Shown here piece by piece: positions 15,144 to 28,788 of a DNA stretch of 64,000 bases. Below the pieces are notes generated by a model. That model saw only the letters and a list, made by a program, of their open reading frames with translations. It was not told where the DNA came from and did no database searches. Numbering within the stretch: position 1 is the first letter of the stretch; the number at the start of each line of letters is the position of its first letter. The position numbers were made by a program, and so were the translations under genes. Source of the DNA: Candidatus Omnitrophota bacterium (GTDB lineage Bacteria; Omnitrophota; Gorgyraeia; Duberdicusellales; 4484-171); NCBI GenBank assembly GCA_037146775.1, contig JBAWWL010000004.1, forward strand, positions 22,471 through 86,470, read 5' to 3'.

Positions 15144-16601
15144 CTATATGTGCTTCTCTCCCTTCACTGCTCCTGCTTCCCACTTAGAAACACCACGCAT
15201 AACATCCTGGAAGCAAAGTTTTGCCAGTTGATCAAAGTTACTGGTCATAATTCTCTGGATGCGTCCAGGCTTAGAGAAAAATTCCCGCATACACCACGCA
15301 CCGAGCCTTCCGTAATCTTCAAGAGAAAGATGCGTAGTGCGCATGACCGGATGGAGAAAATCCCATTTAAGAAAATCGATCTTTTTAATATCTATCTCTC
15401 CCCGCTTAACCCTCTGCCTCCAGATAGGTGAATTCGGGGCCGGAGTAACATAACCAACCCATAAAATATCCGGGTCTACCTCGTCGGTAAACTCGAATCT
15501 TTGCTTTATGGAGTACTCGGTATCATCATCAAAACCCATCATAATATCAGCCACAATAGCAATATTCTGGGCGCGCAAAATATCAATGGTTTTCTTAATC
15601 TGGTCAATCGTGATGCCTTTGGCTATTTTTTTAAGTTCCTCGGGCGTAGTAACCTCAATGCCAAATACCCCCATGAACATGCCGGTTTCTTTCATGAGGG
15701 GTAAAATCTTCTCGCAATTAACCCAATCAACGGCTCTGCCTAAAGAAACCCATTTAATGGGATTATTCTTCTCTTTTTTCAATTTACAGAATTTCTCAAC
15801 CCTGTCAGGATTGACATTAAAATTATCGTCCTGGATAACTACAACTTTGGTGCCCATTTTATGCAGAAGCTCCAACTCTTCAATCACACGCTGGGGAGAT
15901 TTTGCCCGCCAGGTAAGAAAATCCTGCGGAGAACGGGGATCATATTGATCCCATTCGTAACAAAATGTACAAGCCGAAGGGCAGCCACGAGAAGTCATCA
16001 TTTCTACAAATGGTTTCCAGAAAGTATGCCCGACGTATTTATCCATCGGAAATAAATCGTACGCGGGAAGAGGCAGTGTATCCAGATCTTGCAATAATGG
16101 TTTATGCGGGCCCATGACTGGTTTACCGTCTATCCGACTGGTAACGCCGGCAACGTCTTTCATGTTTTTCCCTTTATCTATCGCCGCAATCAAATCGCAG
16201 AAAGACTCTTCCTCTCCCATAACCACATAATCTATCGCCGGATTGTCTTCCAAGGTCTGAACCGGCAAAGCGGAATACCAGAGGCCTCCCATAACTATCT
16301 TTACTTTGGGTAAAACTTGTTTTATTCTTGCGGCAGCCTGGTTAAAATACCAGATTATACCAAAACCTACTGAACAATGAATCATATCGCCGAGGACAAC
16401 TACGTCAGGATTTTTTTCCTTAACTTTTGCGGCGAGCTCTTCAATGGGGATTCCTAAGACGGTCGCATCCAAGACTTCCAGATTATTATAACCTTTTTCG
16501 CGAATATACGCTCCCCACTGGGCATAAAGCTGGTTAGGTGCAAAGTGGTTACCATGCGTTGCCCAAGCGCCGACTTTTGGCATAACGAAAAGAATTTTCA
16601 T
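15144..16601 (-). CDS. B12-binding radical SAM protein (class B radical SAM)
   Basis: 485 aa. N-terminal cobalamin-binding Rossmann-like domain followed by a radical-SAM CxxxCxxC motif (SRGCPSACTFCYEW). Confidence 0.85.
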   Translation of the reverse strand: MKILFVMPKVGAWATHGNHFAPNQLYAQWGAYIREKGYNNLEVLDATVLGIPIEELAAKVKEKNPDVVVLGDMIHCSVGFGIIWYFNQAAARIKQVLPKVKIVMGGLWYSALPVQTLEDNPAIDYVVMGEEESFCDLIAAIDKGKNMKDVAGVTSRIDGKPVMGPHKPLLQDLDTLPLPAYDLFPMDKYVGHTFWKPFVEMMTSRGCPSACTFCYEWDQYDPRSPQDFLTWRAKSPQRVIEELELLHKMGTKVVVIQDDNFNVNPDRVEKFCKLKKEKNNPIKWVSLGRAVDWVNCEKILPLMKETGMFMGVFGIEVTTPEELKKIAKGITIDQIKKTIDILRAQNIAIVADIMMGFDDDTEYSIKQRFEFTDEVDPDILWVGYVTPAPNSPIWRQRVKRGEIDIKKIDFLKWDFLHPVMRTTHLSLEDYGRLGAWCMREFFSKPGRIQRIMTSNFDQLAKLCFQDVMRGVSKWEAGAVKGEKHI

Positions 16602-16650
16602 TGTACTCCCCCTTTTTGTGTTGTGCGACGGCGCATTAAAGCACCGGTAT

Positions 16651-17424
16651 TTATTTCTCTGGATGTTCCTGCTTATATGGTATCACCGGTTTGGTCCAGG
16701 GCGTTTGTTGATTTATAACTGCGATCTCTAAAGGACACACATTCGCCGGAACCGTCAAAGCAAACCGTACTGCATTTTCAATCGCTTCGGTGGTCATCAG
16801 ACGCGAAGCGTCTGCAGTTATTTCCTGCAATTTACCGGTTAAGTCGGTATCAGTAACCCCGGGTAAGATTGACGTAACCTTTATACCCCGATCGCGCAAT
16901 TCCCAAAATAATCCTTTTGAAAAAGCCCGTAAACCAACCTTAAGCGAACTATATACGATAAAGTTTCTGGGTAATGGGTCGCAAAGAGTCGAACCAGAAA
17001 CCATATTAATAATTGCTCCTGATTTCTTAGCTATCATATCATTGATCACTAGGCGGATTAAACGCACATAGCCCAGATAGTTAGTGTGCGCTAAGCGCTC
17101 AAAGTCCTCGATAGGCTGTTTCTCGAAAGGATACTGGCTGGAAACACCGGCGTTATTAATTAAAATATCAATATCGCCGAACGTTTCTTTCGCTTTGTTA
17201 ACCAGGTTTTCTAAGTCATTAAGCTTGGTTACGTCGCAGACTACTGGCAGAACTTTTACTTTGTATTTTTTTGCGAGCTCTTCGGCTGTTTCTTTAAGCG
17301 GGCCTTCCTGGCGCGCGGCAATAACTAGATTTATACCCAGGCTTGCGGCAGTCGACGCTATGGCTTTACCGATTCCGCGGCTTGCTCCGGTAACAACAGC
17401 AGTTTTATTCTTTAGGTTGCTCAT
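16651..17424 (-). CDS. Short-chain dehydrogenase/reductase (FabG-like ketoreductase)
   Basis: 257 aa with TGASRGIGKAIA (TGxxxGxG) and NNAG plus YxxxK catalytic motifs. Confidence 0.85.
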   Translation of the reverse strand: MSNLKNKTAVVTGASRGIGKAIASTAASLGINLVIAARQEGPLKETAEELAKKYKVKVLPVVCDVTKLNDLENLVNKAKETFGDIDILINNAGVSSQYPFEKQPIEDFERLAHTNYLGYVRLIRLVINDMIAKKSGAIINMVSGSTLCDPLPRNFIVYSSLKVGLRAFSKGLFWELRDRGIKVTSILPGVTDTDLTGKLQEITADASRLMTTEAIENAVRFALTVPANVCPLEIAVINQQTPWTKPVIPYKQEHPEK

Positions 17425-17875
17425 CCAATATCCCTCCTCTTATCGGAAATTTGCTCAATTCCGAACGTAGGTCCTCCGCCGCTTTCCGGAAATCTGCCTG
17501 GGTCAGCTGTAAATCTACCCAAAGATCGTTCATTTCTCCGTCATAAAGAGCCCAGGAAGGCCTTACGCTATATTCAAAATATATCCGCAAATTAATATAA
17601 TTTCCTGATTTACCATTTATAATAAATCGCAGGTGCGGCTTGGCAAATTTTTTTTCCGTTTCGGTTTCCTCGTCTGCCGCCAAAGCTTGGAACCAATTAA
17701 TTATACTGTCGATTTCGAATGTTTGCAGGGCCGGATCAAAAACCTTCCAGTAACCATAGGGAGTGCTGACATAGAGACCAACGATCAGCCAGTTATCTTT
17801 GCGCACGGGCGGAATTTCGTATGCGCGAATCATGAGCCCGAATTCCGAACCGTGAGGACCTTTTAAAATTAGCAT
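17405..17875 (-). CDS. Hypothetical protein (no recognisable domain)
   Basis: 156-aa ORF co-directional with the cluster and overlapping the SDR start by 20 nt. No motif recognised by eye. Confidence 0.45.
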   Translation of the reverse strand: MLILKGPHGSEFGLMIRAYEIPPVRKDNWLIVGLYVSTPYGYWKVFDPALQTFEIDSIINWFQALAADEETETEKKFAKPHLRFIINGKSGNYINLRIYFEYSVRPSWALYDGEMNDLWVDLQLTQADFRKAAEDLRSELSKFPIRGGILDEQPKE

Positions 17876-17948
17876 ATACTTACTACTCTTTACACGAAAA
17901 CTTTAGATAATATATTACCTGCAACATTGTATAATAATATCGTATTTA

Positions 17949-19070
17949 TTATGTTTTTACAACAAAATATCTGCTCGTAAATAATAATCCCGCCAGCCCT
18001 GAGCCCAGCGTTATAAAGCCGAGCATAAAACTTTTGTGCATAAGCCAGCCGGAAAAAACTACACCGCAGGCTCCGGCAATAAAACGTACTCCGCTGTTTA
18101 AGCTCGCGGCTTCGTTAAGCATATTCTTAGGTAAATCGGTAAGTGCCGCAGAAATGCCCGCGTGATTGAACGTCCAGCCCAAGCCCCACACAAGCATTAA
18201 GAGTACTAATATGGCGAGTGGACTTTTTACCAACAATAAGAATGCGCTTATAATCATAAGCGCTATCCCGACATCGGCGGTTTTCCTGCGGCCAAGTATA
18301 TCGGAAAGCCAACCACCGATCGCCTCTCCAAAAATACCGCTTAAGCTTGTCAATGTTATCAACATACTGATAAGAAACTGGTTCATTGAAAATGTGGCAG
18401 CAAAGTAAACGGAAAGCCATTGCTGTATGCCATGGTAGAATAAACTGACAAAAAATATGTAGGCAAATATCGAAATGATTGTCTTGTCTCGCAATACTGT
18501 CATGTATGGAATTTTTCTGCTGCTTCGCTGTACCACACACGAAGGCAGCCACAGATACATCAACAGCCATACTATAAAACCGATTATTGCGGGAATTAAA
18601 AAAATCATTCGCCACGGCATAATACCACTTGAGAATAATCCTGCCAGTGATGCGACAAAGGTGGCACTAAAAAATATCCCTACCAATTTTCCGCGATTTT
18701 TAGCTTCGACGCTATGGCCGATAAGAATCAAAATGAGCGGCACTACTGAAGCGCCAAAAATACCCATTAAAAAGCGTGCAAGAAATAACATATCAAGGGT
18801 GGGCGATAAAGCCGCCAGTAAGTTTGCTGCCGAAAAAAGGAAAAAACATACTAATTCGATCCTTTTTGCGTCAAACATATTCGCCAATGGCCCATAAAAA
18901 AGAGCGGCAACACCGTAAGGGAGCATATAAAGCCATACAATTCTGCCGGCAACGAAGAACTCGACGCCGAAATCACCGGCTATTGAAGGGATAAGAGCGG
19001 CGCAGGCGGCAACATTGAAAGATAAAACCGCGCCCTCTAAACAAAGTATTATAAAAGTAAGTTTTCTCAT
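17949..19070 (-). CDS. Major facilitator superfamily transporter
   Basis: 373 aa with about 11-12 predicted hydrophobic helices. MFS signature-like GxLaDrxGrkxxl region (GGWLSDILGRRKT). Confidence 0.8.
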   Translation of the reverse strand: MRKLTFIILCLEGAVLSFNVAACAALIPSIAGDFGVEFFVAGRIVWLYMLPYGVAALFYGPLANMFDAKRIELVCFFLFSAANLLAALSPTLDMLFLARFLMGIFGASVVPLILILIGHSVEAKNRGKLVGIFFSATFVASLAGLFSSGIMPWRMIFLIPAIIGFIVWLLMYLWLPSCVVQRSSRKIPYMTVLRDKTIISIFAYIFFVSLFYHGIQQWLSVYFAATFSMNQFLISMLITLTSLSGIFGEAIGGWLSDILGRRKTADVGIALMIISAFLLLVKSPLAILVLLMLVWGLGWTFNHAGISAALTDLPKNMLNEAASLNSGVRFIAGACGVVFSGWLMHKSFMLGFITLGSGLAGLLFTSRYFVVKT

Positions 19071-19096
19071 TTATTATTGATTGCGTTGATTAGATA

Positions 19097-19150
19097 CAGA
19101 TTACACAGATTTTTATAATCGGTGCAATCATTGTCCTAATCTGTGTAATC
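19097..19150. repeat. Perfect 12-bp-stem hairpin (gattacacagat/atctgtgtaatc), family 3; shares the 18-mer tcctaatctgtgtaatca with 26089..26106
   Basis: Stem arms at 19099..19110 and 19139..19150. The right arm overlaps the stop codon of the SRPBCC gene. An identical 18-mer recurs 7 kb away. Confidence 0.45.
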
Positions 19151-19619
19151 ATTTCATCGTAGAGATTTCTTTTTCAATTACTTCCTTAAAAATTTTTAAA
19201 TTGTCTTTTGAATGTTTATTAATAAAGCCTTCGACCTGTTCATCATTGAATTTCGCTTTTTCATCCATCTCAAAATGCTGGATCCAAGTCATCTCAATGC
19301 CTGTGGTGCGCGGGGTATACAACCAGATGATTTTCATAAACTTAAAAGGAAACTTCGGCTCTTCTCTTTCGGCATAGGCAAGATATTTATCTTTAAATAA
19401 TAAGCGCCATGATTGCCAACTGCGATTTTCGTCATCGGTAAGTTTAAAAGTAATTTTATTGTTTTCCTTTTTAACAACCTCGGCCTTTTTATATTCTCCG
19501 CCGAACAGCTCTGTCCAGCGCGTAATATCATTAGAAATATCAAAGATCTTTTCGTAGGGTGCATTGATAACAATTGAATTAACTGTATGTCCCATTTGTT
19601 CCTCCTTTATATTGTTCAA
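19149..19619 (-). CDS. SRPBCC (START/Bet v1-like, polyketide cyclase/dehydrase family) protein
   Basis: 156 aa, the size and pattern of Polyketide_cyc2-type proteins. Lies adjacent to the cyclase, ACP and KS genes. Confidence 0.6.
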   Translation of the reverse strand: MNNIKEEQMGHTVNSIVINAPYEKIFDISNDITRWTELFGGEYKKAEVVKKENNKITFKLTDDENRSWQSWRLLFKDKYLAYAEREEPKFPFKFMKIIWLYTPRTTGIEMTWIQHFEMDEKAKFNDEQVEGFINKHSKDNLKIFKEVIEKEISTMK

Positions 19620-19626
19620 AGTTTAG

Positions 19627-19678
19627 AGTTCAATGTTCAATGAATACTCTCTGAACACTGAACGTTTAACATTGAACT
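19627..19678. repeat. Hairpin with 11-bp perfect stem (agttcaatgtt/aacattgaact), family 2 (GTTCAAYG half-sites); related copy at 41609..41639
   Basis: Seen directly in the sequence. The right arm overlaps the stop codon of the cyclase gene. Confidence 0.4.
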
Positions 19679-20474
19679 ATAATATTGCTACTACTCTCGC
19701 CCAGGCAGCTCCGGTAGTTTTAATTTTTACCGGAAAACAAATTACTTTAAATCCGAAATCCGGCAATTGCTCCAAATGAGCTAAGCGTTCTATATGGATA
19801 AACTCTCTTTTACGGCCGTAGAAATGCGTAGGGTATAGCTTCTTGGGATCTTTTGTTTCTAAAAACTCTTTGAGCATAAATTTATAAGGCCGGTCTATAC
19901 CCATGGTATCTACTCCAAAGATCGTAATACCTTTATCTAAAAGATAATCTATCGCCGAAATATCTACTCCTGGATAATCGCTAAAATATTTTTGCCCGCC
20001 GTATAATTTATCCGCCCCGGTACGTAAAAGTACAATGTCTAAGGCTTTGAGCGAATAATTTATTTTCTTTAATGCTGCCTCGATGTCGGCAGCAATAATG
20101 ACTTCATTTGGTTTTTTATGCGAAACGTCAAGTTTTACACCGTTTTGATAACACCACTGGAGAGGAATTTCTTCGGCGGTCTTTGAGGCGCGGCCTTCGG
20201 ACTTTGAACCGTAATGAAATGAGTAATCCAAGTGTGTTCCGATGTGTACTGGCGAATGCACTATTTCCAAAGACAAGAACTCTTCGTCGGGCAAGTCTTC
20301 TTTTCTTACAATACGCTTACCTAATATATATTGGAGTTTACCTTTAAGGGTTTTACCCATCAATACGCGGTTGAATTTTTCAACGCCTGCCTGATGAGAC
20401 ACACGCTCAATCTCCACATGGTGGACTTCAAAGGCCTTATCGTCTATGGGAAGGCTTAGGTCGATTATTTGCAT
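19677..20474 (-). CDS. PF04199 'putative cyclase' family protein (kynurenine formamidase-like fold)
   Basis: 265 aa with the HxGTHxD metal motif (HIGTHLDYSFH) characteristic of the cyclase/arylformamidase family. Confidence 0.75.
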   Translation of the reverse strand: MQIIDLSLPIDDKAFEVHHVEIERVSHQAGVEKFNRVLMGKTLKGKLQYILGKRIVRKEDLPDEEFLSLEIVHSPVHIGTHLDYSFHYGSKSEGRASKTAEEIPLQWCYQNGVKLDVSHKKPNEVIIAADIEAALKKINYSLKALDIVLLRTGADKLYGGQKYFSDYPGVDISAIDYLLDKGITIFGVDTMGIDRPYKFMLKEFLETKDPKKLYPTHFYGRKREFIHIERLAHLEQLPDFGFKVICFPVKIKTTGAAWARVVAIL

Positions 20475-20480
20475 ATTTTG

Positions 20481-20548
20481 TTTCTGAAGTCAGAAGACAG
20501 ACGTCAGAAGTCAGATTTTTCTGTCCTCTGTTTTCTGTCATCTGTCAT
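20481..20548. repeat. Intergenic inverted repeat, family 1 copy B
   Basis: The left arm tctgaagtcagaagacagacgtcagaagtcaga, then tttttc, then tgtcctctgttttctgtcatctgtcatct. It shares cagaagtcaga and ctgtcctctg blocks with copies A and C. It sits between the ACP stop and the cyclase start, ending 6 nt before the cyclase ATG. Confidence 0.5.
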
Positions 20549-20557
20549 CTAATTTTA

Positions 20558-20788
20558 TCACTTCTTCTTTTCAATTAGTTGTGCAATTTCAAGTGGTGTT
20601 GAAAATTTAGAGATCTCATTAGCCGCGAGTTTAACGCCAAAACGCTTGCCCAACGAAACACAAAGCTCAACCATTTCGGTTGAATCCACTCCTATAGAAT
20701 CGTATAATTTTTCACTTTCGCCAATTTCATCCACTTTCACATCCAAGATATCTGCGATTGCGTTTACGACATCCTCTTTTGAAGCCAT
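20558..20788 (-). CDS. Acyl carrier protein
   Basis: 76 aa with a phosphopantetheine-attachment motif (GVDSTEMVEL) in the standard helix II position. Confidence 0.85.
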   Translation of the reverse strand: MASKEDVVNAIADILDVKVDEIGESEKLYDSIGVDSTEMVELCVSLGKRFGVKLAANEISKFSTPLEIAQLIEKKK

Positions 20789-20821: not shown

Positions 20822-21826
20822 TTATTTCAAACTATGTTTCTTGAAAAATTCCCAAATCTGCTCGAATGATATATCGCAAGAAACAGGTCCAACCATATTC
20901 GCTGGTAAATACTGCGCTCCACTGGGATACGCGTGCCCCATTCCTTCTACCATACATAACACAACTTCTGAACCTTGTGCGCAATCGTTATAGATCACGC
21001 ACCTCGCTGCGCCGTTTTCGTATCCGGCGACCTGTTTATCTGAACATTGGTTTATCTTTTTCCATACATCCACCACTTGATAAGGAGTCATCCTTTGATA
21101 GGGCATAGCAAAACCTGTACCACTATCTTTAGCAAAAATACTTCTTGGTTCGCTACCGTCGGGAGGATTGGCTGGATCAGCCGTACCGTGGATATTCATT
21201 ACCGGCATTGACCGGGACGGTTGGCATTCTGATTTTACTGCAGCGGGAGTCACAGTAGCAATAGCTGCTATTTTTTCTGAAAGTTCGCAGCCAAGCCGAT
21301 TAGTCATCAAACCACCGTTCGAAATACCGGTAGCATAAATCCTTCTGGCATCAACTTTAAATTTCGCTTTCAATTCGTCTATCATTTTGGAAATAAAGCC
21401 TACGTCGTCGGCGGAACCGCAACATTCGCCGGTTGCCCATTTCCCACCATTCCAAACTCCTCTTAAATGCCCAAATGTTAACTCGCCGGTTCCTTCCGGA
21501 ACCGCCAAGATAAAACCAAATTTATCTGCTGCTTTATCTACACCATCCATATAGACTGCTCGCATATCGCCAGAGCCTCCATGGATATAGATAACAACTG
21601 CAAAAATCGTTTTTCCGTCATAGGCTGGCGGGAGATGAACCTTATATTTTCTAATTATTCCGTCATGCGCTAAAGAAAATTCCGGATCGTCAGCACCGTA
21701 AGACTTTTCTTTCTTTTCTTGTGGGCGTTTCTTTATTTTTTCCTTCAAAATATTTTGAGCGGAAACGCTGGAAGAAAATACAAATAAAATACTCAATATC
21801 GCAATTATAGCTTTGTGCTTTTCCAT
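20822..21826 (-). CDS. Secreted alpha/beta-hydrolase esterase of the PHB-depolymerase (LpqC/Esterase_PHB) type
   Basis: Trimmed to MEKHKAIIAILSILFVFSSSVSA... (signal peptide). IYIHGGSG and GISNGG (GxSxG nucleophile elbow) motifs. Its ATG overlaps the KS-beta stop as TAATG. Confidence 0.65.
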   Translation of the reverse strand: MEKHKAIIAILSILFVFSSSVSAQNILKEKIKKRPQEKKEKSYGADDPEFSLAHDGIIRKYKVHLPPAYDGKTIFAVVIYIHGGSGDMRAVYMDGVDKAADKFGFILAVPEGTGELTFGHLRGVWNGGKWATGECCGSADDVGFISKMIDELKAKFKVDARRIYATGISNGGLMTNRLGCELSEKIAAIATVTPAAVKSECQPSRSMPVMNIHGTADPANPPDGSEPRSIFAKDSGTGFAMPYQRMTPYQVVDVWKKINQCSDKQVAGYENGAARCVIYNDCAQGSEVVLCMVEGMGHAYPSGAQYLPANMVGPVSCDISFEQIWEFFKKHSLK

Positions 21827-23070: not shown

Positions 23071-24308
23071 TTTTTGAATATAATAGACGAATGTATTCCG
23101 GAAAATCCACTGCTGGTTTTCAAAATATAATTAGGCATATATTGCCTTTTTACATTGGGAATATAATCTAAGTCACATTTCGGGTCAGGTTCTTCCTGGT
23201 TTATCGTGGGAGGTAAATAGCCTTTTTCGAAAATCATCGCGCATAAAACACTTTCTACTGCGTTCGCCGCAGCCAAGGGGTGTCCGATCATCGACTTCAC
23301 TGAACTGATAGGCAATTTATATGCGTAATCGCCGAATACTGCCTTATAGGCGTTAGTCTCAAAAACGTCGTTTTGACGGGTAGATGACCCGTGAGTGTTG
23401 ATATAATCTATATCTTCATTTTTTATTCCTGCGTCTTTAATTGCGTCTTTAATGCAGCGCTCCATTGCTTCGCCATCTTCCGGCAGATCGGTCATATGAA
23501 AGGCATTGCAACTGGTACCGTAACCGACTAATTCTCCATAAATATGCACACCTCTTTTTTTGGCGTGTTCAAGTTCTTCCAAAACTAAAACCCCGGCGCC
23601 TTCGGAAATTACAAAACCATTTCTCTTGTTATCAAAGGGACGGCTGGCTTTGTGTGGTTCGTCGTTGTTCTTAGCCAAAACATTAACTACGTCAAACGCG
23701 CCAAAGGTAATCGGACACACCGGCGCCTCCGTGCCTCCGGCGATAATCATGTCTTGCCGGCCTTCTCGGATAAGTTCGAAAGAAAATCCGAGCGAATCCG
23801 TTGCGGCGGTACAGCCGGTAGAAACTGTACAATTGAGTCCCTGTGTATGATAGAGAGCTCCTATTTCGGCACTCGGCGTATTAAACATGGCTGCATCATA
23901 AAGATATGGCCGGCCCTTACGCGGATCGATAGGTTTTTTACCCCAATCGGTTACCAACAAGAATTCCTCTTCCATGAAGCGCGTACCGCAGATAGCGTTA
24001 GCCAAAACGACTCCGCATCTTTTCCTGTCTATCTTGTTAAAATCAATATGGCTGTCCTCAACTGCCTGCTTGGCCGCGGCAATACCAAACTGTACATATC
24101 TATCCATGCGTATATGGTCTTTTATTCCGAATTTTAACGGGTCAAAACCTAAATCTTGTGAGGCTATTTTTGAGACAAATAAGCTTACGTCAAAATTTTC
24201 AACCCTTTCAACAAAAGGTTTACCCGCAATAAGGTTGTCGTAAAAAGTATTCTTATCTTCTCCTGCCGCGCTGATTACCCCGATTCCTGTTATAACTACA
24301 CGTTTCAT
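23058..24308 (-). CDS. Beta-ketoacyl synthase (KS-alpha; FabF/type II PKS KS family)
   Basis: 416 aa. Active-site Cys in VSTGCTAATDSLG, His in YINTHGSST and His in MIGHPLAAA. Confidence 0.85.
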   Translation of the reverse strand: MKRVVITGIGVISAAGEDKNTFYDNLIAGKPFVERVENFDVSLFVSKIASQDLGFDPLKFGIKDHIRMDRYVQFGIAAAKQAVEDSHIDFNKIDRKRCGVVLANAICGTRFMEEEFLLVTDWGKKPIDPRKGRPYLYDAAMFNTPSAEIGALYHTQGLNCTVSTGCTAATDSLGFSFELIREGRQDMIIAGGTEAPVCPITFGAFDVVNVLAKNNDEPHKASRPFDNKRNGFVISEGAGVLVLEELEHAKKRGVHIYGELVGYGTSCNAFHMTDLPEDGEAMERCIKDAIKDAGIKNEDIDYINTHGSSTRQNDVFETNAYKAVFGDYAYKLPISSVKSMIGHPLAAANAVESVLCAMIFEKGYLPPTINQEEPDPKCDLDYIPNVKRQYMPNYILKTSSGFSGIHSSIIFKKWRV

Positions 24309-24324
24309 TTTTTACCTCTTATTA

Positions 24325-24416
24325 TCAGAAGTCAGACGTCAGAGGACAGAGAACAGAAGATAAATTTTTCTGTCGTCCACCATCTGTCACCTATCGTCTG
24401 TCCTCTGTTTTCTGCT
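24325..24416. repeat. Inverted repeat, family 1 copy C (left arm intergenic, right arm overlapping the last 8 codons of the ApbA-fusion gene)
   Basis: atcagaagtcagacgtcagaggacagagaacagaagataaa ... gtctgtcctctgttttctg. It shares acagaagataaa and gtctgtcctctg with copy A. Confidence 0.5.
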
Positions 24417-26027
24417 CACCTTAAACACTATATTTCCTCCGTCAGGACAAGTCACTGTATTAATACCGTCCGGATCATCCATAAAGAAAAACTTTGCGCC
24501 GAAGTTAAGAGCAAATAACGCAGGAAAAGCGCAATGATATGCCGCACCACAGAAACCTTCCGAACATTTCAGCCCCTTAACTTCAAATTTATCTCCCAGC
24601 TTATACTGATACGCACATTTTCCTTTTGCTTGCACTACTTCTAAAACCATATCTTTAGGGTTGGGCCCTTTATGATTCGGGTCTTTTTCTATTGTTTCTA
24701 TATTTCCTTCTTTGTCAAATATTTCCGCTTTAAACTCTAATTTTCCTCCATCAGGACAAGTCACTAAAAGCGATCGTTGATTATCTCTAAAAGGAAATTT
24801 TGCGCCAAAACTTAAAGCATAAATAACAGGAAATAATGCGTGCGCCAGCCCCAGACAAAAATGCTTGGGGGGATGAGTGAAATCTTCCAAGATAATTTCA
24901 TCACCAATCTTGTAGCCGTGGTAACAATCTCCTTCTACTTTATTGACGGTAAGTTTCAAGCGTGGAAAGGGCGTATTAACTCTTTCTTCGCCCGCCAAAG
25001 TGGCTGCCTGAGGAATCAAATTCTTGGTTTTTGCAACAAGCTCGTCTATGGTTAGAAACTTTTTATCTTTCTCTACTTTATGCACAAGTTCAGCAAGTTT
25101 TTTATTGAGCGGGGTGTGGTAAGAGCATTCTTTTCCTAATTCCATAAAAGCTCCATTTAAATAATCAATTTCTGAAGGCCGGTCCCGCTTGATACTTTGC
25201 AATATTGAGCCATAAAGCGGCTCCTTGCTTAAACCGACCATGATGCCAGAAAATATTTTAGCTGCGTCTTTTATCGGCAAAGACGTTAATTTTACTATTT
25301 GTTCAATGCGAAAATCGGGTAAATCAAACAGCTTTATTCCCGCTTTTCTTACGACACCAAGGCCCTCCTGCCATATGCCGATACTTATTTCGCATAAATC
25401 CAAATTAGCGAAACACTCCTGCATACTTTTTCCGGTAATGGCGGGAATGCAGTTGTTGGCGTTAGCAAAAACTTTCAGCCACTTCATTCCCATAATATTA
25501 TCGCTCACTTCAACGGGAAAAATTTTGCTTAGTATATTCTTTACCTCTGCAACGCTGCTGTCGTTTTTAGCGTAAGGCTTGCCTATTACCCATTTTCTGT
25601 CGAAGTTATGCACCACCTTCCCCGGCTCTAAATAGGTTGAGCCAAACATCACAATGCTAGAAATAATATTTTCTCGAGCGGTATACCTGGAAACAATTTC
25701 ATCAGCTTTTACGCCATTTTGGGTGGTTACAATAGGCGTATTTTCTAAATATTTTCGGTTTTGTTCCAAAGCATTTTCTATATCCTGGGTTTTGGTTGCC
25801 AAAATAATAAGGTCTACCTGAGTATTAAGTTTTTCAAAAACATCGATTTTGATTTTGAAATTTCCCCTCACACCGGAGATTTGCAGACCATTTTTAACTA
25901 TAGCGCTGACAGAGTCTTTATGCCCAACCAAAAAGATATCTTGGTTGGCTTCCTTTAGATACCCAGCAACCAAACCTCCAATAGCCCCCGAACCTATAAC
26001 CGCTATTTTCATACTCGCTCCGCTCAT
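24387..26027 (-). CDS. Ketopantoate reductase (ApbA/PanE)-family NAD(P) oxidoreductase fused to two C-terminal Cys/His-rich ~85-aa repeats (motif C-x2-[YH]...FC...FP...FGAKF.F.D...CPDGG..FK)
   Basis: The N-terminal IAVIGSGAIGG Rossmann motif and ApbA-like body cover roughly residues 1-330. Two tandem repeats cover residues about 375-455 and 460-540, each ending in an invariant V-T-CPDGG block. Confidence 0.65.
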   Translation of the reverse strand: MSGASMKIAVIGSGAIGGLVAGYLKEANQDIFLVGHKDSVSAIVKNGLQISGVRGNFKIKIDVFEKLNTQVDLIILATKTQDIENALEQNRKYLENTPIVTTQNGVKADEIVSRYTARENIISSIVMFGSTYLEPGKVVHNFDRKWVIGKPYAKNDSSVAEVKNILSKIFPVEVSDNIMGMKWLKVFANANNCIPAITGKSMQECFANLDLCEISIGIWQEGLGVVRKAGIKLFDLPDFRIEQIVKLTSLPIKDAAKIFSGIMVGLSKEPLYGSILQSIKRDRPSEIDYLNGAFMELGKECSYHTPLNKKLAELVHKVEKDKKFLTIDELVAKTKNLIPQAATLAGEERVNTPFPRLKLTVNKVEGDCYHGYKIGDEIILEDFTHPPKHFCLGLAHALFPVIYALSFGAKFPFRDNQRSLLVTCPDGGKLEFKAEIFDKEGNIETIEKDPNHKGPNPKDMVLEVVQAKGKCAYQYKLGDKFEVKGLKCSEGFCGAAYHCAFPALFALNFGAKFFFMDDPDGINTVTCPDGGNIVFKVSRKQRTDDR

Positions 26028-26030
26028 ATT

Positions 26031-26106
26031 GATTACACTGATTGAGAAAAGATTACAGTGATTTTAATTGCTATTGCTGTAATCACTCTCCTAATCTGTG
26101 TAATCA
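26031..26106. repeat. Nested hairpins, family 3 copy (gattacac/gtgtaatc outer stem, gattacag/ctgtaatc inner stem; contains the 18-mer tcctaatctgtgtaatca)
   Basis: Seen directly in the 82-bp spacer between the 26110 stop and the 26027 start. Confidence 0.4.
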
Positions 26107-26109
26107 ATT

Positions 26110-26373
26110 TTATGTTTGTATGTATTTTTCGTATTCAATACCAAGCTTAGTAAATAATCTTTTCATCATATCCTTGAATGCCGGAGGAATTTCCTTGAAA
26201 AATGCTTCCACCAGCTCTTTCTCTTCTACGCTTGTCAGATTTTTACTTTTGGCAATTTCTTCCGCCGACTCCTTAACCAATCTTTCGGCAATAGTACGGT
26301 GAAATTGCGGCAAATTGCTGATTACTTTATCGAATATTTCTTTTGCCTTTGGACTCCATTGCATATCAGACAT
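26110..26373 (-). CDS. Small alpha-helical protein of unknown function (weak resemblance to PCP_red-type domain)
   Basis: 87 aa. The W-SPKA-E...LPQFHRTIAERLVKESAE pattern resembles the W..EA...PxFVR motif of the protochlorophyllide-reductase C-terminal (PF08369-like) module. Low confidence. Confidence 0.4.
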   Translation of the reverse strand: MSDMQWSPKAKEIFDKVISNLPQFHRTIAERLVKESAEEIAKSKNLTSVEEKELVEAFFKEIPPAFKDMMKRLFTKLGIEYEKYIQT

Positions 26374-26464
26374 ATTTTAACTCCTTAATTCGCAGAAATC
26401 TAACCGATATATAGGATAGGCGCGAGGGATAATGGCAGAAGCGGATTGCCGCGGATATCCGCTT

Positions 26465-27190
26465 CTAAATTATTTCAAATACCGCCCTGGTCATCTTTTC
26501 TTCCGCATCGAATAGCCGAAAATCAGCGAAACCCATTTCACCGGTAAGCAAGTTATCCGAAGCTACCAATACCGCGGCTACTTTCCTTTTGTAGACATTA
26601 GCAATAGTCACGAACGGACTGGTCACCATGTCGACACAAATAGCGCCTTTTTCTATGTAAGGATTTACGATCTCTTTGGTTTCCCTAAACATCGCGTCCG
26701 TTGTCCAACAGCCGCCCTGATACACCGTTCCTTCTTTCTTGAAGATTGCCGCTAATTTACCGGTTAATTCTTTATCTACCTGAGAAACAAACTTTTCATC
26801 CACATAGTAACGCGTAGCGCCGTCGCCCCTGATAACTTTATCGACTACAACAAAATCTCCCACAGTCATTTCCTGCAACATCCCTCCGCAAGAACCCAAA
26901 CGAATAAGCGTCTGTATTCCTCCTACGCATAATATTTCTGTAACGAACGCTGAATCGGGGGCATAGAAGCCGCCGTTACCTACGGTGACTTTTTTTCCTT
27001 TGTACGTTCCGGTCCAAAAGGTATATCCTAAAAATGTAAAATTTTTTACGGGGTTTCCCAGATATTGAAGGCAACGCTGAGCTCGCTGCATTTGACCGCT
27101 GATAATACCGATTTCGCCAAAGTCTCCCGGCCTAAACTGTAAAGACTCTAGTAACCCCTTCGCATGCAGATGAACATCTCTTTGCATCAT
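26465..27190 (-). CDS. PNP_UDP_1 family nucleoside phosphorylase/nucleosidase (MTA/SAH-nucleosidase or futalosine-hydrolase-like)
   Basis: 241 aa with GxGGxxTL-type phosphate-binding and a fold pattern (TVGNGGFYAPDS..., VGGIQTLIRLGSCGG) typical of PF01048. Confidence 0.7.
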   Translation of the reverse strand: MMQRDVHLHAKGLLESLQFRPGDFGEIGIISGQMQRAQRCLQYLGNPVKNFTFLGYTFWTGTYKGKKVTVGNGGFYAPDSAFVTEILCVGGIQTLIRLGSCGGMLQEMTVGDFVVVDKVIRGDGATRYYVDEKFVSQVDKELTGKLAAIFKKEGTVYQGGCWTTDAMFRETKEIVNPYIEKGAICVDMVTSPFVTIANVYKRKVAAVLVASDNLLTGEMGFADFRLFDAEEKMTRAVFEII

Positions 27191-27243
27191 AAGCGCAACT
27201 CCTTTGTAAATAGAAATAAATCCTCGTTAATATACTCGCGGTT

Positions 27244-28788
27244 TTATACTGACCCCGCGCTGTTTTCTCGTTTAGTTTTGCGTGTATTCGCTGCTATTAA
27301 TTTTGTTTTATCGATCTTGCCTACCCTATTTTTTGGCAATTCTTTTACATATTCAAAGTAGTGTGGGATCTTAAAATGCGCCAGGTGAACTTTTAAAAAT
27401 TCTTTCAGCTCATCCAGGGCTATCGGTTCGCCGTCCTTGGTTACGATAAATGCCTTGGGTACTTCGCCGCGCAACTCATCGGGCAAACCGATCACTGCAA
27501 CTTCTTTTATGTTCGGATGACGCTGCATCTTTTCTTCTACCTCGGCTGAGAATACAATCTCTCCCGCGACTTTTATCATATCCTTTTTCCTTCCTACCAG
27601 ATAAAAAAGCCCCTCCTTACAATAGGCGACATCGCCGGTTTTAAGCCATCCGTCGCCGGTCAAAACAGCCTGTGTCATCTGCGGCGCTTTATAATAACAT
27701 ACCATCACGCCATCGCCCTTCACCAAAAGCTCCCCTGTTTCGCCATACAATAATTTATTTCCTTTGTCATCCACTACTTTTGCGTCCATCCGGAAACCGA
27801 AGCTACCAATACTGTCTATGGCTTTTCCGTCCGGGGGCGAATAGGTGTTCGGAGCTGCTGTTTCTGTCATTCCCCAGCCGTTTAGTAATATCGCCTTGGG
27901 GCAAGAACGATGGAATTTTTTCAAAAGTTCCGGTGATGACGGTGCGCCAAAAACTACCGCATAGCGTAATGATGCCAACTCATAATAATCGTATTCTTTC
28001 AACGATAAAATCGCCACATACATCGCCGGTACGATACAAAATATGGTTACTTTATATTTTTCGATGTTTTTGAGAAACTCTAGCGGATGAAAGCGCTCCA
28101 TAAGCACCATTGTGGAAGCAAAACGAAGCATTAAAAGAATATAATCAAGGCCTCCGATGTGAGAGAAAGGTACGCCACCAGTAAGAAAAATATCTTTATC
28201 CGAAACTCCTAAAAAATGGTTGATGGTATCAACCGGGTTATCCAGATGCTTGTAACTAAGCATGACCCCTTTGGGATTACCAGTTGAGCCCGAGGTATAA
28301 AATAAAGAAGAAATATCGCTGTCTTTAATCTCTATCTTTGGCTCTGCCTCGGTATTATTAGCTAAAACATCATCCCAAAGAAGACACCCTCTCACCCTTT
28401 CCTTGCACACAATTACGTCTTTGAGCGAAGAGCAGGCGTTTTTAATATTCATGATATTGATATCTTTTCTCGGCTGGATAATTAATATTTTCGCTTCGCA
28501 ATGGTTTAAGATATCAATAATTTCTTCTTCGGTAAGCATAAAGTCGAGTGGAACAAGTGTTAACCCGGCACAAAAAACCGCTATGTAGCTATAGACCGCT
28601 TCGGGGATATTTGAAAGAAAAAGCGCTACCTTGTCTGGTTTTCTAACTCGCGCGCCGTAAAGATAATTAGCCAATCTAAAAGAAGGCCCCTTAAGTTGCG
28701 CAAAAGTAATATTCTGTCCCTCGAAAATAATTGCTGGTTTTTCGGGATACGAAGAAACTTGTTTGAGTAATAATTCTTTTACATTCAT
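27244..28788 (-). CDS. AMP-dependent synthetase/ligase (acyl/aryl-CoA or acyl-ACP ligase)
   Basis: 514 aa with the AMP-binding motif YTSGSTGNPKGV, the TGD motif (LKTGD) and the C-terminal PKNRVGKIDK lysine motif. Confidence 0.85.
   Translation of the reverse strand: MNVKELLLKQVSSYPEKPAIIFEGQNITFAQLKGPSFRLANYLYGARVRKPDKVALFLSNIPEAVYSYIAVFCAGLTLVPLDFMLTEEEIIDILNHCEAKILIIQPRKDINIMNIKNACSSLKDVIVCKERVRGCLLWDDVLANNTEAEPKIEIKDSDISSLFYTSGSTGNPKGVMLSYKHLDNPVDTINHFLGVSDKDIFLTGGVPFSHIGGLDYILLMLRFASTMVLMERFHPLEFLKNIEKYKVTIFCIVPAMYVAILSLKEYDYYELASLRYAVVFGAPSSPELLKKFHRSCPKAILLNGWGMTETAAPNTYSPPDGKAIDSIGSFGFRMDAKVVDDKGNKLLYGETGELLVKGDGVMVCYYKAPQMTQAVLTGDGWLKTGDVAYCKEGLFYLVGRKKDMIKVAGEIVFSAEVEEKMQRHPNIKEVAVIGLPDELRGEVPKAFIVTKDGEPIALDELKEFLKVHLAHFKIPHYFEYVKELPKNRVGKIDKTKLIAANTRKTKRENSAGSV

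Follow-up and report, generated by a model that had tools for sequence, protein, structure and literature searches.

Which product does the minus-strand gene cluster in this window (the whole stretch of Candidatus Omnitrophota DNA that was analysed, 64,000 nucleotides) make, and where does the cluster end? The original prediction was a compact, orphan cluster of 14 co-directional, tightly packed genes around type II polyketide synthase (PKS) proteins, leading to an aromatic polyketide, an aryl polyene or an unusual lipid.

Extent and conservation of the operon

Fourteen open reading frames do lie between 28788 and 15144, all on the minus strand and either overlapping or separated by short gaps, and Pfam and NCBIfam confirmed the predicted domains of each. 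The unit itself is neither compact nor orphan. Beyond 15144 it continues for another 6.4 kb, as six further co-directional genes follow downstream as far as 8759 (Amidohydro_2, class IV aminotransferase, MtnA-like isomerase, class II aldolase with SCP2, Cache protein and aldehyde dehydrogenase, ALDH), all but the Cache gene belonging to the conserved unit. Window 8759-28788, ~20 kb on the minus strand, forms a single biosynthetic operon conserved in Candidatus Omnitrophota, and about 17 conserved genes of it recur in at least 80 Omnitrophota species genomes. Its invariant core consists of a KS-alpha, a chain-length factor (CLF), an acyl carrier protein (ACP), a PF04199 cyclase, a TcmN-type aromatase/cyclase and an MFS transporter. 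Four further enzymes are inherited along with this core (BchE-like B12 radical SAM enzyme, SDR, ACMSD/LigW-type decarboxylase, and a ketopantoate-reductase-like protein that bears TIGR04076 repeats), as is a five-enzyme series of ligase, nucleoside phosphorylase (PNP), MtnA-like isomerase, class II aldolase-SCP2 and ALDH. Genes for MCAT and PPTase are absent from the operon.

Identity of the CLF within Omnitrophota spans 55-100% (55-91% for the 80 species genomes), and the operon genes recur also in a lineage labelled Deltaproteobacteria. Four gene orders were found in total, three among the 80 species genomes and the fourth in a 57%-identical lineage. A chance neighbourhood of unrelated operons (a PKS, nucleoside catabolism and assorted enzymes) would account for genomes that carry the core alone (locus L002) or have no ligase, PNP or ALDH gene nearby (locus L003, with DeoC and a Zn-ADH instead), and three window genes are clearly inserts. 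Yet the gene set is kept despite its shuffled order, in 80 genomes and a second lineage, and among the 34 fully flanked loci each member gene occurs in 26-34, the exceptions being ALDH (21) and ligase (24), which are partly cut off by the 10-kb flank. Chance assembly is accordingly the least probable of the explanations, to be taken as extremely improbable.

The three inserts are:
20822..21826, minus strand, secreted PHB-depolymerase-family esterase with a signal-peptide-like N-terminus
17405..17875, minus strand, WapI-like immunity protein of 156 aa (PF24716, E = 3e-25)
10297..11190, minus strand, secreted double-Cache domain protein (PF08269 and PF17200)

All three are lineage-specific, and the latter two occur in this genome only. 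The esterase (NF050058, 139 bits, under the cut-off), which had been counted as a pathway member, sits between the KS2 and ACP genes in the window and is present in 6 of 80 related loci; its start was corrected to 21826, where its ATG overlaps the KS2 stop. No homologue of the WapI-like gene was found in the 87 related loci searched, and the Cache gene is absent from every related locus compared. Of the "two small unknown proteins" first described, the WapI-like one thus drops out, and the other, of 87 aa, stays as a conserved member.

Ketosynthase pair, carrier protein and cyclases

The core genes other than the transporter are:
23058..24308, minus strand, KS-alpha (KS1), with Cys166-His306-His343
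21826..23058, minus strand, CLF-type KS-beta (KS2), with the catalytic triad changed to Lys/Asp/Asn
20558..20788, minus strand, discrete acyl carrier protein (PF00550)
19677..20474, minus strand, PF04199 "OxyN-type" metal-dependent cyclase (103.4 bits)
19149..19619, minus strand, monodomain TcmN-type aromatase/cyclase (SRPBCC, Polyketide_cyc2), from PDB matches and pocket residues

The predicted coupling of a Cys-His-His ketosynthase to a paralogue lacking the histidines was borne out: the KS2 ATG at 23058, preceded by a GGAGAG Shine-Dalgarno sequence, overlaps the KS1 TGA. As KS2 has Lys/Asp/Asn at the triad positions, the cysteine is missing as well as both histidines, and Lys stands where a canonical CLF has Gln. 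The closest solved relative of KS1 is the anthraquinone KS-alpha AntD (6SMO_B; 364.7 bits, 45.5% identity); B. subtilis FabF scores 350 bits and Act KS-alpha 333.6. In the phylogenetic comparison with housekeeping FabF that had been proposed, both KS proteins fall apart from FabF. Of 200 bootstraps, 186 pair KS1 with AntD as its sister, and 193 split KS1, AntD and Act KS-alpha from FabF. KS2 lies within a split of triad-less CLF-like proteins (200/200), its nearest neighbours outside Omnitrophota being triad-less proteins of Clostridium beijerinckii/puniceum, Ktedonobacter and Archangium; this split takes in proteins from clostrubin-producing Clostridium species. The best solved matches of KS2 are FabFs (287 bits; Act CLF 220, AntE 134). 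KS1 exceeds the cut-off of the NCBI "FabF subfamily" (433 vs 387), so naming by HMM alone gives beta-ketoacyl-ACP synthase II.

Significant PDB matches of the SRPBCC protein are only to TcmN, WhiE, ZhuI and another polyketide cyclase (E ~1e-22 to 1e-20), and equivalents of the TcmN pocket residues Y35, W65, S67, R69, W108, Q110 and N136 are kept, in agreement with the predicted aromatase/cyclase type. The PF04199 cyclase shows the motif HIGTHLDYSFH, and sister type II PKS clusters contain copies 44-45% identical to it. Both cyclases, and the ACP with its GVDSTE serine motif, are present in 34/34 loci. Neighbourhoods in relatives consist of PKS genes, never fab genes. With both KS proteins apart from FabF, synteny of the PKS type and cyclases that match PKS families, the locus does not look like one for fatty-acid modification.

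A reduced or linear, lipid-like product (of the FAS type, the aryl-polyene type or the "ladderane type" of antiSMASH labels) has some points in its favor. FabF models give the top scores for KS1 and KS2; "ladderane"-labelled clusters have been reported, and are expressed, in Omnitrophota MAGs, a label that a KS next to a B12 radical SAM enzyme might plausibly attract in automatic annotation; the unit has MMPL and LolA-like genes on its flanks in locus L089 and, in order C, an RND transporter gene upstream. Against such a product stand, besides the trees and the two ever-present cyclases, the absence from all loci of FabH, FabD, FabZ/FabA, FabI, a second ACP, an acyltransferase and a thioesterase, and a score of 78.5 for TIGR04072, the ladderane radical SAM family (cut-off 360). 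We consider it very improbable. The aryl-polyene and unusual-lipid alternatives of the original prediction lack their defining genes, and the aryl-polyene, ladderane and fab-operon readings were rejected.

With KS-CLF-ACP-TcmN-OxyN, the core has exactly the architecture that was published as "ancestral" for type II PKS (PMC7693217), and a 2023 catalogue lists KS-CLF pairs in Candidatus Omnitrophica (PMC10132072). An aromatic-polyketide assignment to an ancestral-type type II PKS in a non-actinobacterial genome, as first predicted, is therefore well supported at the level of sequence by the KS trees, the SRPBCC matches and the synteny. The KS-alpha/CLF heterodimer would lengthen an ACP-bound chain by malonyl units, with the catalytically dead CLF shaping the chain-length cavity, and the two cyclases would make a polyphenol by folding a poly-beta-ketone that has undergone little or no reduction. 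None of this core chemistry would call for an oxygenase, as suits an anaerobe.

Tailoring and transport genes

The genes around the core are:
16651..17424, minus strand, classical SDR, candidate polyketide ketoreductase or tailoring reductase (PF00106 and KR match)
15144..16601, minus strand, B12-binding radical SAM enzyme, BchE/HpnJ-like (PF02310 and PF04055)
14131..15012, minus strand, Amidohydrolase_2 of ACMSD/IDCase/LigW type, candidate non-oxidative aromatic-acid decarboxylase (PF04909)
24990..26012, minus strand, ketopantoate-reductase-family (ApbA/PanE) NAD(P)H reductase domain (PF02558 and PF08546)
24387..24989, minus strand, two TIGR04076 ("CPDGG") repeats, each with three conserved Cys and a His
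26110..26373, minus strand, 87-aa helical protein (borderline DUF2621)
17949..19070, minus strand, MFS transporter with 12 TM (PF07690)
13287..14099, minus strand, class IV aminotransferase, accessory (PF01063)

The roles proposed for these proteins rest on family membership only. The SDR, with TGxxxGxG and YxxxK motifs (32/34 loci), may carry out a keto reduction. The radical SAM enzyme keeps CxxxCxxC, shares 74-94% identity with its counterparts in orders A and C and matches TIGR02026 (BchE) over almost its full length (201 bits) ahead of HpnJ (152 bits), both under the cut-off; it might perform an O2-independent C-methylation or oxidation. B12 radical SAM enzymes are recurrent in sister type II PKS clusters of anaerobes. 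The closest solved relatives of the Amidohydro_2 protein (30/34 loci; HxH and D ligands visible) are all decarboxylases, which suggests removal of an aromatic carboxylate. A further redox step could involve the ApbA reductase, the TIGR04076 repeats and the 87-aa protein. The ApbA domain passes TIGR00745 (166.6 vs 141.35) and is a stand-alone gene in most relatives; the repeats, fused to it in the window, are elsewhere a separate 200-aa protein coupled to KS1, and are absent in order B. The 87-aa protein (DUF2621, 27.6 bits vs a cut-off of 27.7; weak PCP_red match) occurs in 32/34 loci, always directly upstream of the ApbA gene; the sister cluster L091 encodes a U32/SCP2 protein with a DUF2621-like region fused to it. 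The transporter (32/34 loci), with weak matches to DHA2 efflux and aromatic-acid:H+ symporter models, may move product or precursor. The aminotransferase is confined to part of gene order A (13/34 loci), and in L089 a DAO-type oxidase takes its place.

A candidate nucleoside-to-acid module

The five genes of the series are:
27244..28788, minus strand, AMP-dependent ligase (PF00501 and PF13193)
26465..27190, minus strand, DeoD/Udp-like nucleoside phosphorylase, PNP_UDP_1 (PF01048, 108.8 bits)
12331..13275, minus strand, MtnA-like pentose-1-phosphate isomerase of the IF-2B family (PF01008)
11295..12299, minus strand, class II (Zn) aldolase (PF00596, 122 bits) fused to an SCP2 lipid-binding domain (PF02036, 23.6 bits; cut-off 21.3)
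8759..10255, minus strand, non-acylating NAD(P)+ aldehyde dehydrogenase (PF00171, 570 bits), the last conserved gene

The PNP family had been recognized correctly, but the protein is phosphorylase-like, and part of this module, rather than a nucleosidase: it has the R-x-G-S phosphate motif (LIRLGSCGG; DeoD-type model 78 bits, under the cut-off) and occurs in 30/34 loci. The isomerase passes TIGR00524 (191.5 vs 185.85), scores 235 against the MtnA equivalog (under 279) and shows the HCN Cys and GADN..NGD Asp motifs. The aldolase keeps its catalytic motifs, and its SCP2 fusion is retained in orders A-C; the L089 copy, which runs off the end of the locus, also has a weak SCP2 match. ELGGK and GQxC mark the ALDH as the non-acylating, oxidising type (BADH, ABALDH and StyD-like NCBIfam matches), and in L089 aldehyde:ferredoxin oxidoreductases replace it non-orthologously, so that the aldehyde-oxidising step is retained. 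The ligase, whose closest solved relatives are 4-coumarate-CoA ligase (228 bits), FadD5, feruloyl-CoA synthetase and MenE, probably activates an acid that is then loaded onto ACP or CoA. Its gene adjoins that of the phosphorylase in orders A and B, and in order B all five genes are contiguous.

We think it probable that the operon combines the type II PKS core and tailoring enzymes with a module that feeds the PKS; product identity and the part played by the module are what we infer. Phosphorylase, isomerase, aldolase-SCP2, ALDH and ligase, in this order and on the pattern of the DHAP shunt or the fluoroacetate pathway, would convert a SAM-derived 5'-deoxynucleoside to DHAP and a C2 aldehyde, then to an acid and its thioester, if phosphorylase and aldolase run in the directions presumed. 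Candidate substrates are the 5'-deoxyadenosine that the radical SAM step would release and, alternatively, methylthioadenosine. The module would clear an inhibitory by-product and supply the PKS, most plausibly with its starter unit. Taken on its own, this module is tentative, its chances somewhat short of even.

Rather less likely is that the same PKS core is accompanied by pure disposal: phosphorylase, isomerase, aldolase and ALDH would serve as a DHAP-shunt-type sink for 5'-deoxyadenosine/MTA and pass no carbon to the polyketide, and the 4CL-like ligase would prime the PKS with an aryl or fatty acid of other origin, which the MFS transporter might bring in. The enzyme order is that of the known 5-deoxyribose/MTA DHAP shunt, and a radical SAM enzyme, a potential source of 5'-deoxyadenosine, is in every locus. 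The DeoC and Zn-ADH that L003 has for ALDH are typical of acetaldehyde handling, and the ligase resembles aryl-acid ligases, as the transporter weakly does aromatic-acid symporters. However, general salvage is unlikely to stay operon-linked through four rearrangements, with CLF identity only 55-57% to that of the window; in order B the ligase gene directly adjoins the rest of the module, and the SCP2 fusion is left unexplained.

The SCP2 fusion would find a use if the module trimmed an adenosylated hydrophobic intermediate. Addition of a 5'-deoxyadenosyl radical, loss of the base by phosphorolysis, isomerisation of the sugar and cleavage by the SCP2-tethered aldolase would leave an aldehyde extended by two carbons, which would pass as the acid through the ligase to the PKS. 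Precedents for such adenosylation are the MqnE/MqnB futalosine route and the HpnH/HpnG hopanoid route. In line with it are a weak HpnG match of the PNP-family protein (31 bits), the rank of HpnJ as second-best family of the radical SAM enzyme, and the likeness of ligase and ALDH to aryl-acid and arylacetaldehyde enzymes. The known adenosylating radical SAM families (MqnE, HpnH) are absent, though, the sole radical SAM enzyme is of the B12-binding class B, a class not known to adenosylate, and all these family scores lie far under their cut-offs; we hold such trimming to be improbable.

Three observations sit awkwardly with a C2-acid module. The loci L003 and L002, described above, do without some or all of its genes; an SCP2 domain is odd on an aldolase for a small water-soluble substrate; and the closest solved relatives of the ligase activate aryl or arylpropenoid acids.

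Extent, gene content and setting of the operon

The original prediction described a compact orphan cluster, and neither adjective holds. The 14 minus-strand ORFs at 15144-28788 are separated by gaps of -20 to +91 nt after start-codon correction, and the domain calls made for them are borne out by Pfam and NCBIfam; six further co-directional genes continue the run beyond position 15144, and the same gene set recurs in at least 80 Omnitrophota species genomes. We treat the downstream genes other than the Cache gene as part of the unit because gene tables of related contigs show them together. In one related locus (L005), ligase through aldehyde dehydrogenase (ALDH) form a tight 18-gene operon without the esterase, WapI-like and Cache genes.

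Genes of the operon (window coordinates, strand, product)
15144-28788 (-): AMP-ligase; phosphorylase (PNP_UDP_1); 87-aa protein with a borderline DUF2621 match; ApbA/PanE-family reductase fused to two TIGR04076 repeats; two ketoacyl synthases (KS1, 23058..24308; KS2, 21826..23058); PHB-depolymerase-type esterase with a signal-peptide-like N-terminus; ACP; PF04199 cyclase; SRPBCC protein (Polyketide_cyc2); MFS transporter; 156-aa WapI-like immunity protein; SDR; B12-binding radical SAM enzyme
14131-15012 (-): Amidohydro_2 protein, downstream
13287-14099 (-): class IV aminotransferase, downstream
12331-13275 (-): MtnA-like isomerase, downstream
11295-12299 (-): class II aldolase fused to SCP2, downstream
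10297-11190 (-): secreted Cache protein, downstream
8759-10255 (-): ALDH, downstream

The 156-aa product, listed before as a small unknown protein, is related to polymorphic-toxin immunity proteins of the WapI type (PF24716, E = 3e-25). Its gene (17405-17875, minus strand) separates the MFS gene from the SDR gene, with a 20-nt overlap at the SDR start; no counterpart was found among the 87 related loci searched. The secreted esterase (20822-21826, minus strand) is inserted between the KS2 and ACP genes and is translationally coupled to KS2, its ATG overlapping the KS2 TAA. The insert is limited to a few close relatives (L012-L014, L016, L018 and L030; 6 of 80 loci), and we rejected an AntI-like chain-shortening role for this enzyme on the grounds of its secretion, its PHB-depolymerase type and this distribution. 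The secreted double-Cache protein encoded between the aldolase and ALDH genes is without an output domain and is confined to this genome; either a periplasmic ligand-binding protein or what is left of a sensor could be meant by it.

GC content does not differ between the cluster and its surroundings and thus gives no hint of recent acquisition. The neighbouring genes (RNase Y, YmdB, DXS, pyruvate:ferredoxin oxidoreductase, Era and HypD/HypF) point to an anaerobe. An Rfam scan of the whole window returned no riboswitch or other RNA.

Class of the synthase

Judged from sequence, the core of the operon is a minimal type II polyketide synthase (PKS) with two predicted cyclases. The catalytic triad, the dead partner, the ACP, the cyclases and phylogeny all support the type II interpretation proposed originally. 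Alignment with 44 KS-family proteins places the triad of KS1, the KS-alpha, at Cys166/His306/His343, and KS2, the chain-length factor (CLF, or KS-beta), carries Lys/Asp/Asn in the same columns. The partner had been described as lacking the catalytic histidines; both are indeed gone, and the cysteine is gone as well, so that all three residues are replaced. The proposed translational coupling of the pair is confirmed by the overlap of the KS2 ATG with the KS1 TGA, with a GGAGAG motif upstream. Canonical actinobacterial CLFs present in place of the cysteine a glutamine that serves decarboxylative priming; in KS2 this position holds Lys, preceded by Asp. Since CLF-like relatives from Clostridium, Ktedonobacter and Archangium carry Asp-Arg where KS2 has Asp-Lys, the KS2 group shares a non-Gln variant in which a basic residue follows Asp at the former cysteine.

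Among proteins of solved structure, KS1 is closest to AntD, the KS-alpha of the Photorhabdus anthraquinone (ant) cluster, at 364.7 bits and 45.5% identity; Bacillus subtilis FabF (350 bits), the other FabFs and Act KS-alpha (333.6 bits) score lower. The Omnitrophota KS2 family forms a single 50% cluster in a search of 1.84 billion cluster representatives. Its next full-length relatives, at 37-45% identity, are triad-less too, and the named ones come from Clostridium beijerinckii and C. puniceum (clostrubin producers; 43% identity), Ktedonobacter racemifer (39%) and Archangium. In a neighbor-joining rather than maximum-likelihood tree, with limited reference sampling, KS1 is sister to AntD in 186 of 200 bootstraps, KS1, AntD and Act KS-alpha fall in a clade of at most six taxa that holds no FabF in 193 of 200, and all 22 triad-less proteins including KS2 form one split in 200 of 200. 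Within that sampling, both proteins are placed with type II PKS proteins and apart from FabF.

The FabF of fatty acid synthesis (FAS II) has the same fold as both proteins and the same triad as KS1, and both give high FabF HMM scores. Nevertheless, both stay below the TIGR03150 equivalog cut-off of 493.75 (448.7 for KS1 and 375.2 for KS2), although KS1 passes the looser NF005589 subfamily cut-off. The window pair further differs from FAS II in its partner, predicted to be catalytically dead, and in the phylogeny, which separates both proteins from FabF. No fab synteny (fabH, fabD, fabG, fabZ or acpP) is present in the operon or in the 87 related loci, and a housekeeping origin, the outcome that would have overturned the original prediction, is thus not what we observe.

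Two other classes offered as alternatives were rejected. For an aryl polyene, the defining Pfam families are absent: hot-dog dehydratases, a second ACP, a thioesterase and lipid acyltransferase or glycosyltransferase genes were found neither among the 20 operon genes nor in the gene tables of L002, L003, L005 and L089, four related loci. For an unusual lipid of the ladderane type, the radical SAM enzyme reaches 78.5 bits against the TIGR04072 equivalog cut-off of 360 and matches BchE (201) and HpnJ (152) better. Automatic annotation could plausibly label the combination of KS and B12 radical SAM genes 'ladderane', and clusters so named have been reported as expressed in Omnitrophota MAGs. A pantothenate link through the ApbA reductase and the class IV aminotransferase was also discarded, with PanB and PanC missing and the aminotransferase present in 13 of 34 loci.

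The remaining core proteins agree with this class. The ACP (PF00550, E = 1e-11) has a GVDSTE motif with the phosphopantetheine-attachment serine. The only significant PDB matches of the SRPBCC protein are TcmN, WhiE, ZhuI and one further polyketide cyclase (E ~1e-22 to 1e-20), and it keeps the equivalents of Y35, W65, S67, R69, W108, Q110 and N136, with T133 changed to Ser, among the pocket residues reported for the TcmN structure; its assignment as an aromatase/cyclase therefore stands. The PF04199 protein retains the HxGTHxDxxxH motif, and its solved relatives, isatin hydrolase and kynurenine formamidase, are weak matches.

Comparison with known type II PKSs places the operon with the ancestral-type systems of non-actinomycetes. 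The dendrubin paper, after Hillenmeyer, gives KS-CLF-ACP-TcmN-OxyN as the most ancestral architecture (PMC7693217). The clostrubin (clr), dendrubin (den), Photorhabdus anthraquinone (ant) and pyxidicycline (pcy) clusters and the Ktedonobacter KS-CLF system share the KS-alpha, CLF, ACP, TcmN-type and OxyN/PF04199 set with the window operon. The TcmN-TcmN didomain of ant, den and pcy contrasts with the monodomain aromatase/cyclase of the window operon (PMC7693217). Like the window operon, clr and den come from anaerobes. The ant cluster also carries a ligase and a reductase gene, as the window cluster does. In the window operon the set is consistently linked to a nucleoside-to-acid module, a BchE-like B12 radical SAM enzyme, an Amidohydro_2 protein, a KPR-like reductase, TIGR04076 repeats and the 87-aa protein. 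In this system a type II PKS of ancestral type is tied to an accessory set that is conserved and undescribed, and the whole is widespread in a phylum that has not been cultured.

Candidatus Omnitrophica is one of the 14 phyla in a catalogue of KS-CLF pairs from 2023, which gives no further description (PMC10132072), and the main Omnitrophota genomics paper makes no mention of polyketides (PMC10066038). Our literature search found no paper describing the operon. To our knowledge, few type II PKSs outside actinomycetes have been characterised, and no candidate phylum that lacks cultured members has contributed one. The Ktedonobacter KS-CLF pair is reportedly soluble when expressed in E. coli, and the KS1-KS2 pair, which falls in the group that contains it, is therefore a practical experimental entry point.

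Conservation and reshuffling of the gene set

MAGs of Candidatus Omnitrophota account for every KS2 homologue at 72-100% identity. When one genome per GTDB species was scanned, at least 80 loci were recovered with KS2 at 55-91% identity, from Omnitrophota or from MAGs that are evidently mislabelled, and the KS1-KS2 pairing is kept in 76 of 80, the rest being truncated loci. Among the contigs filed under other taxa, L035 (JAIWAR010000044.1) belongs to a 'Methanosarcinales archaeon' MAG, and many, L021, L023 and L025 included, are filed as 'uncultured Planctomycetia/Planctomycetales' MAGs. The archaeal label may result from co-binning of an Omnitrophota cell attached to its methanogen host.

The window proteins, compared with the related loci by tblastn, define three gene orders.

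Gene orders of the related loci (parentheses as in the locus comparison; small, 87-aa protein; T4076, TIGR04076 repeats; ARO/CYC, SRPBCC protein; rSAM, B12 radical SAM enzyme)
Order A: ligase-PNP-small-ApbA-T4076-KS1-KS2-ACP-cyclase-ARO/CYC-MFS-SDR-rSAM-Amidohydro2-(aminotransferase)-isomerase-aldolase-ALDH
Order B: (ligase)-PNP-isomerase-aldolase-ALDH-rSAM-small-ApbA-KS1-KS2-ACP-cyclase-ARO/CYC-MFS-SDR-Amidohydro2
Order C: small-ApbA-T4076-KS1-KS2-rSAM-ACP-cyclase-ARO/CYC-MFS-SDR-Amidohydro2-PNP-isomerase-aldolase-ALDH

Occurrence of operon genes in the 34 loci whose 10-kb flanks are complete (the last few conserved genes frequently fall beyond this limit)
KS1, KS2, ACP, both cyclases: 34/34
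ApbA: 33/34
MFS, 87-aa protein, rSAM, SDR: 32/34 each
PNP, Amidohydro_2: 30/34 each
Isomerase, TIGR04076: 29/34 each
Aldolase: 26/34
Ligase: 24/34
ALDH: 21/34
Aminotransferase: 13/34
Esterase: 1/34

A fourth order with the same gene set occurs in a Deltaproteobacteria-labelled lineage (CLF 57% identical). There, aldehyde:ferredoxin oxidoreductases (AFORs) replace ALDH, a DAO-type oxidase takes the aminotransferase position, and MMPL and LolA-like genes flank the locus. The TIGR04076 double repeat is 75-94% identical wherever present and is absent from all 19 order-B loci. That the set is retained through repeated reshuffling is our chief reason to think that PKS genes and accessory genes act together.

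Small additions accompany individual orders. Order B, L003 and L089 (the Deltaproteobacteria-labelled locus) have a short second IF-2B-like ORF of ~130-160 aa after the MtnA-like isomerase (L003 18779-19255; L075 2945-3322; L089 20243-20689); it matches the C-terminal third of the isomerase only and is absent from the window. In order-B loci an additional ORF that resembles class I SAM methyltransferases also separates MFS from SDR (L075 14398-15264), and in order-C loci the operon is immediately preceded by genes for an RND (AcrB-like) transporter and a 96-aa P-II-like product (L084 3281-6744).

Omnitrophota are ultra-small, probably host-dependent bacteria with genomes of 1-2 Mb. At least 80 of their species carry the cluster, with sequence conservation at the level of core genes. 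This pattern across many species genomes (CLF 55-91%, TIGR04076 75-94%) resembles housekeeping proteins rather than a strain-specific antibiotic, and speaks for a product with a central, not an ornamental, place in physiology.

Proposed nucleoside-to-acid module and oxygen-independent tailoring

Five accessory genes, for the phosphorylase, isomerase, aldolase-SCP2, ALDH and AMP-ligase, make up the putative nucleoside-to-acid module and are contiguous in order B. The phosphorylase (PF01048, 108.8 bits) has an R-x-G-S phosphate motif; its best NCBIfam match is DeoD-type PNP at 78 bits against a cut-off of 230, and MTA/SAH nucleosidase models give 20-36 bits. The isomerase lies above the TIGR00524 subfamily cut-off (191.5 vs 185.85) and below those of the MtnA equivalogs (235 vs 279 and 255 vs 271), with the catalytic motifs HCN (Cys) and GADN..NGD (Asp) kept. 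The aldolase (PF00596, 122 bits) keeps the His ligand motifs, and its best equivalog match, NF006413, reaches 116 against 203. Its SCP2 fusion is found in orders A-C, with a weak SCP2 match in the truncated copy of L089, and the homologue search with the fused protein gave only Omnitrophota orthologues among the 120 matches listed. The ALDH is non-acylating, with BADH-, ABALDH- and phenylacetaldehyde-dehydrogenase-like matches. The aldehyde step is kept in L089 through the AFORs, a non-orthologous replacement; in L003, DeoC and a Zn-ADH stand in for ALDH, and ligase and PNP genes are absent nearby.

The same families in the same order (phosphorylase, MtnA-family isomerase, class II Zn aldolase, ALDH) are known from two routes: the DHAP shunt or 5-deoxyribose salvage (MtnP or Pfs plus kinase, MtnA/DrdI, Ald2/DrdA), and the fluoroacetate route of Streptomyces cattleya (PNP FlB, isomerase, class II aldolase, aldehyde dehydrogenase). 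The module differs from both in that its phosphorylase, isomerase and aldolase reach no equivalog cut-off, and in its place within a PKS operon, paired with an AMP-ligase. In comparison with the DHAP shunt, its phosphorylase is DeoD/Udp-like rather than MtnP-like and its aldolase carries the atypical SCP2 domain. By this parallel, a 5'-deoxynucleoside from SAM chemistry would be split into DHAP and a C2 aldehyde, the aldehyde oxidised to an acid, and the acid returned to the synthase by the ligase, most plausibly as starter. We tentatively favor this conversion of a SAM-derived 5'-deoxynucleoside with feedback of the acid as likely starter, and give it somewhat less than an even chance. The reverse, biosynthetic direction (aldehyde and DHAP to a 5'-substituted nucleoside) was rejected, as the ALDH motifs are of the non-acylating, oxidising type.

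The ligase bears on the main rival reading. Among solved structures it is nearest to 4-coumarate-CoA ligase, FadD5, feruloyl-CoA synthetase and MenE, and the module could serve only to salvage the by-product, the starter then being some unrelated aryl or fatty acid; we rate this somewhat below the favored reading. If the module instead trimmed a hydrophobic intermediate that had been adenosylated, in the manner of the futalosine and hopanoid pathways, the SCP2 domain would be explained and so would the aryl-type ligase; since an adenosylating enzyme is not evident, we consider this improbable.

The tailoring genes suggest how a product could be finished. The Amidohydro_2 protein has its metal ligands, and its nearest solved relatives, ACMSD, uracil-5-carboxylate decarboxylase and LigW, all decarboxylate (hetero)aromatic or vinylogous acids non-oxidatively; the obvious guess is that it removes a carboxylate from an aromatic ring. 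The radical SAM enzyme aligns nearly full-length with the BchE model and more poorly with that of HpnJ, both far below cut-off, and its solved relatives AprD4, TokK and CysS are remote. At least three non-orthologous B12 radical SAM enzymes occur in each of L091 and L092, two sister type II PKS clusters from anaerobes, and this recurrence fits oxygen-independent tailoring. TIGR04076 is matched at 95.7 bits (cut-off 33) over two repeats. We infer an aromatic polyphenolic polyketide that would be made without oxygen-dependent enzymes and tailored by reduction, a radical SAM step and decarboxylation.

We found no description in the literature of an aromatic PKS associated with phosphorylase, isomerase, aldolase, dehydrogenase and ligase, and likewise none of one with a BchE-like B12 radical SAM enzyme and the TIGR04076 protein, which is itself uncharacterised. 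Such a fixed association suggests either a new connection from a SAM by-product to polyketide priming or a new oxygen-independent tailoring of aromatic rings.

The nucleoside module was not found in L091 or L092, the two sister clusters inspected. L091 encodes U32-family proteins, one fused to SCP2-like and DUF2621-like regions, and L092 a UbiE-type methyltransferase; the Peptidase_U32 (UbiU/V-family), LuxE/LuxC and UbiE-type genes lie at L091 10693-13657 and at L092 2910-5562 and 13856-14629. These clusters point to a wider undescribed set of oxygen-independent tailoring enzymes for aromatic polyketides. UbiU and UbiV, of the U32 family, are oxygen-independent ubiquinone hydroxylases and UbiT is an SCP2 protein; polyketide quinones exist in mycobacteria. 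The window likewise has an SCP2 domain and a DUF2621-like small protein but, unlike the anaerobic ubiquinone set, no U32, UbiA or UbiE genes in the operon or elsewhere in the window, and no quinone genes were found in the rest of the window. Rather than a dispensable antibiotic, the operon might supply the whole lineage with an aromatic polyketide that is redox-active and made without oxygen, either a 'polyketide quinone' or the precursor of an aromatic head group, its chain primed or extended with ribose carbon of a SAM-derived nucleoside, which would parallel the logic of the futalosine pathway. We consider this a long shot, because no gene in the window ties the operon directly to prenylation. 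If true, it would explain the 55-95% protein identity across many carrier genomes in a phylum of streamlined nanobacteria, and the UbiU/V-type U32, SCP2 and UbiE-type genes of the sister anaerobe clusters. Seymour et al. report 4-hydroxybenzoate polyprenyltransferase without chorismate lyase in many Omnitrophota (PMC10066038); the source of the aromatic ring is left open there because the UbiA-type enzyme is present and chorismate lyase is missing, and the quinone reading would supply one.

Elsewhere in the window, two PilZ-domain proteins (35056-37053 and 54296-54835, minus strand), one fused to a GH76-like region, are encoded near polysaccharide export genes (Wzz/GNVR, Poly_export/SLBB, Wzy_C) and a GGDEF-HAMP protein, a neighbourhood that hints at c-di-GMP-controlled exopolysaccharide production. 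At the window end (62001-64000), GC content falls to 0.35, compared with 0.40-0.48 elsewhere.
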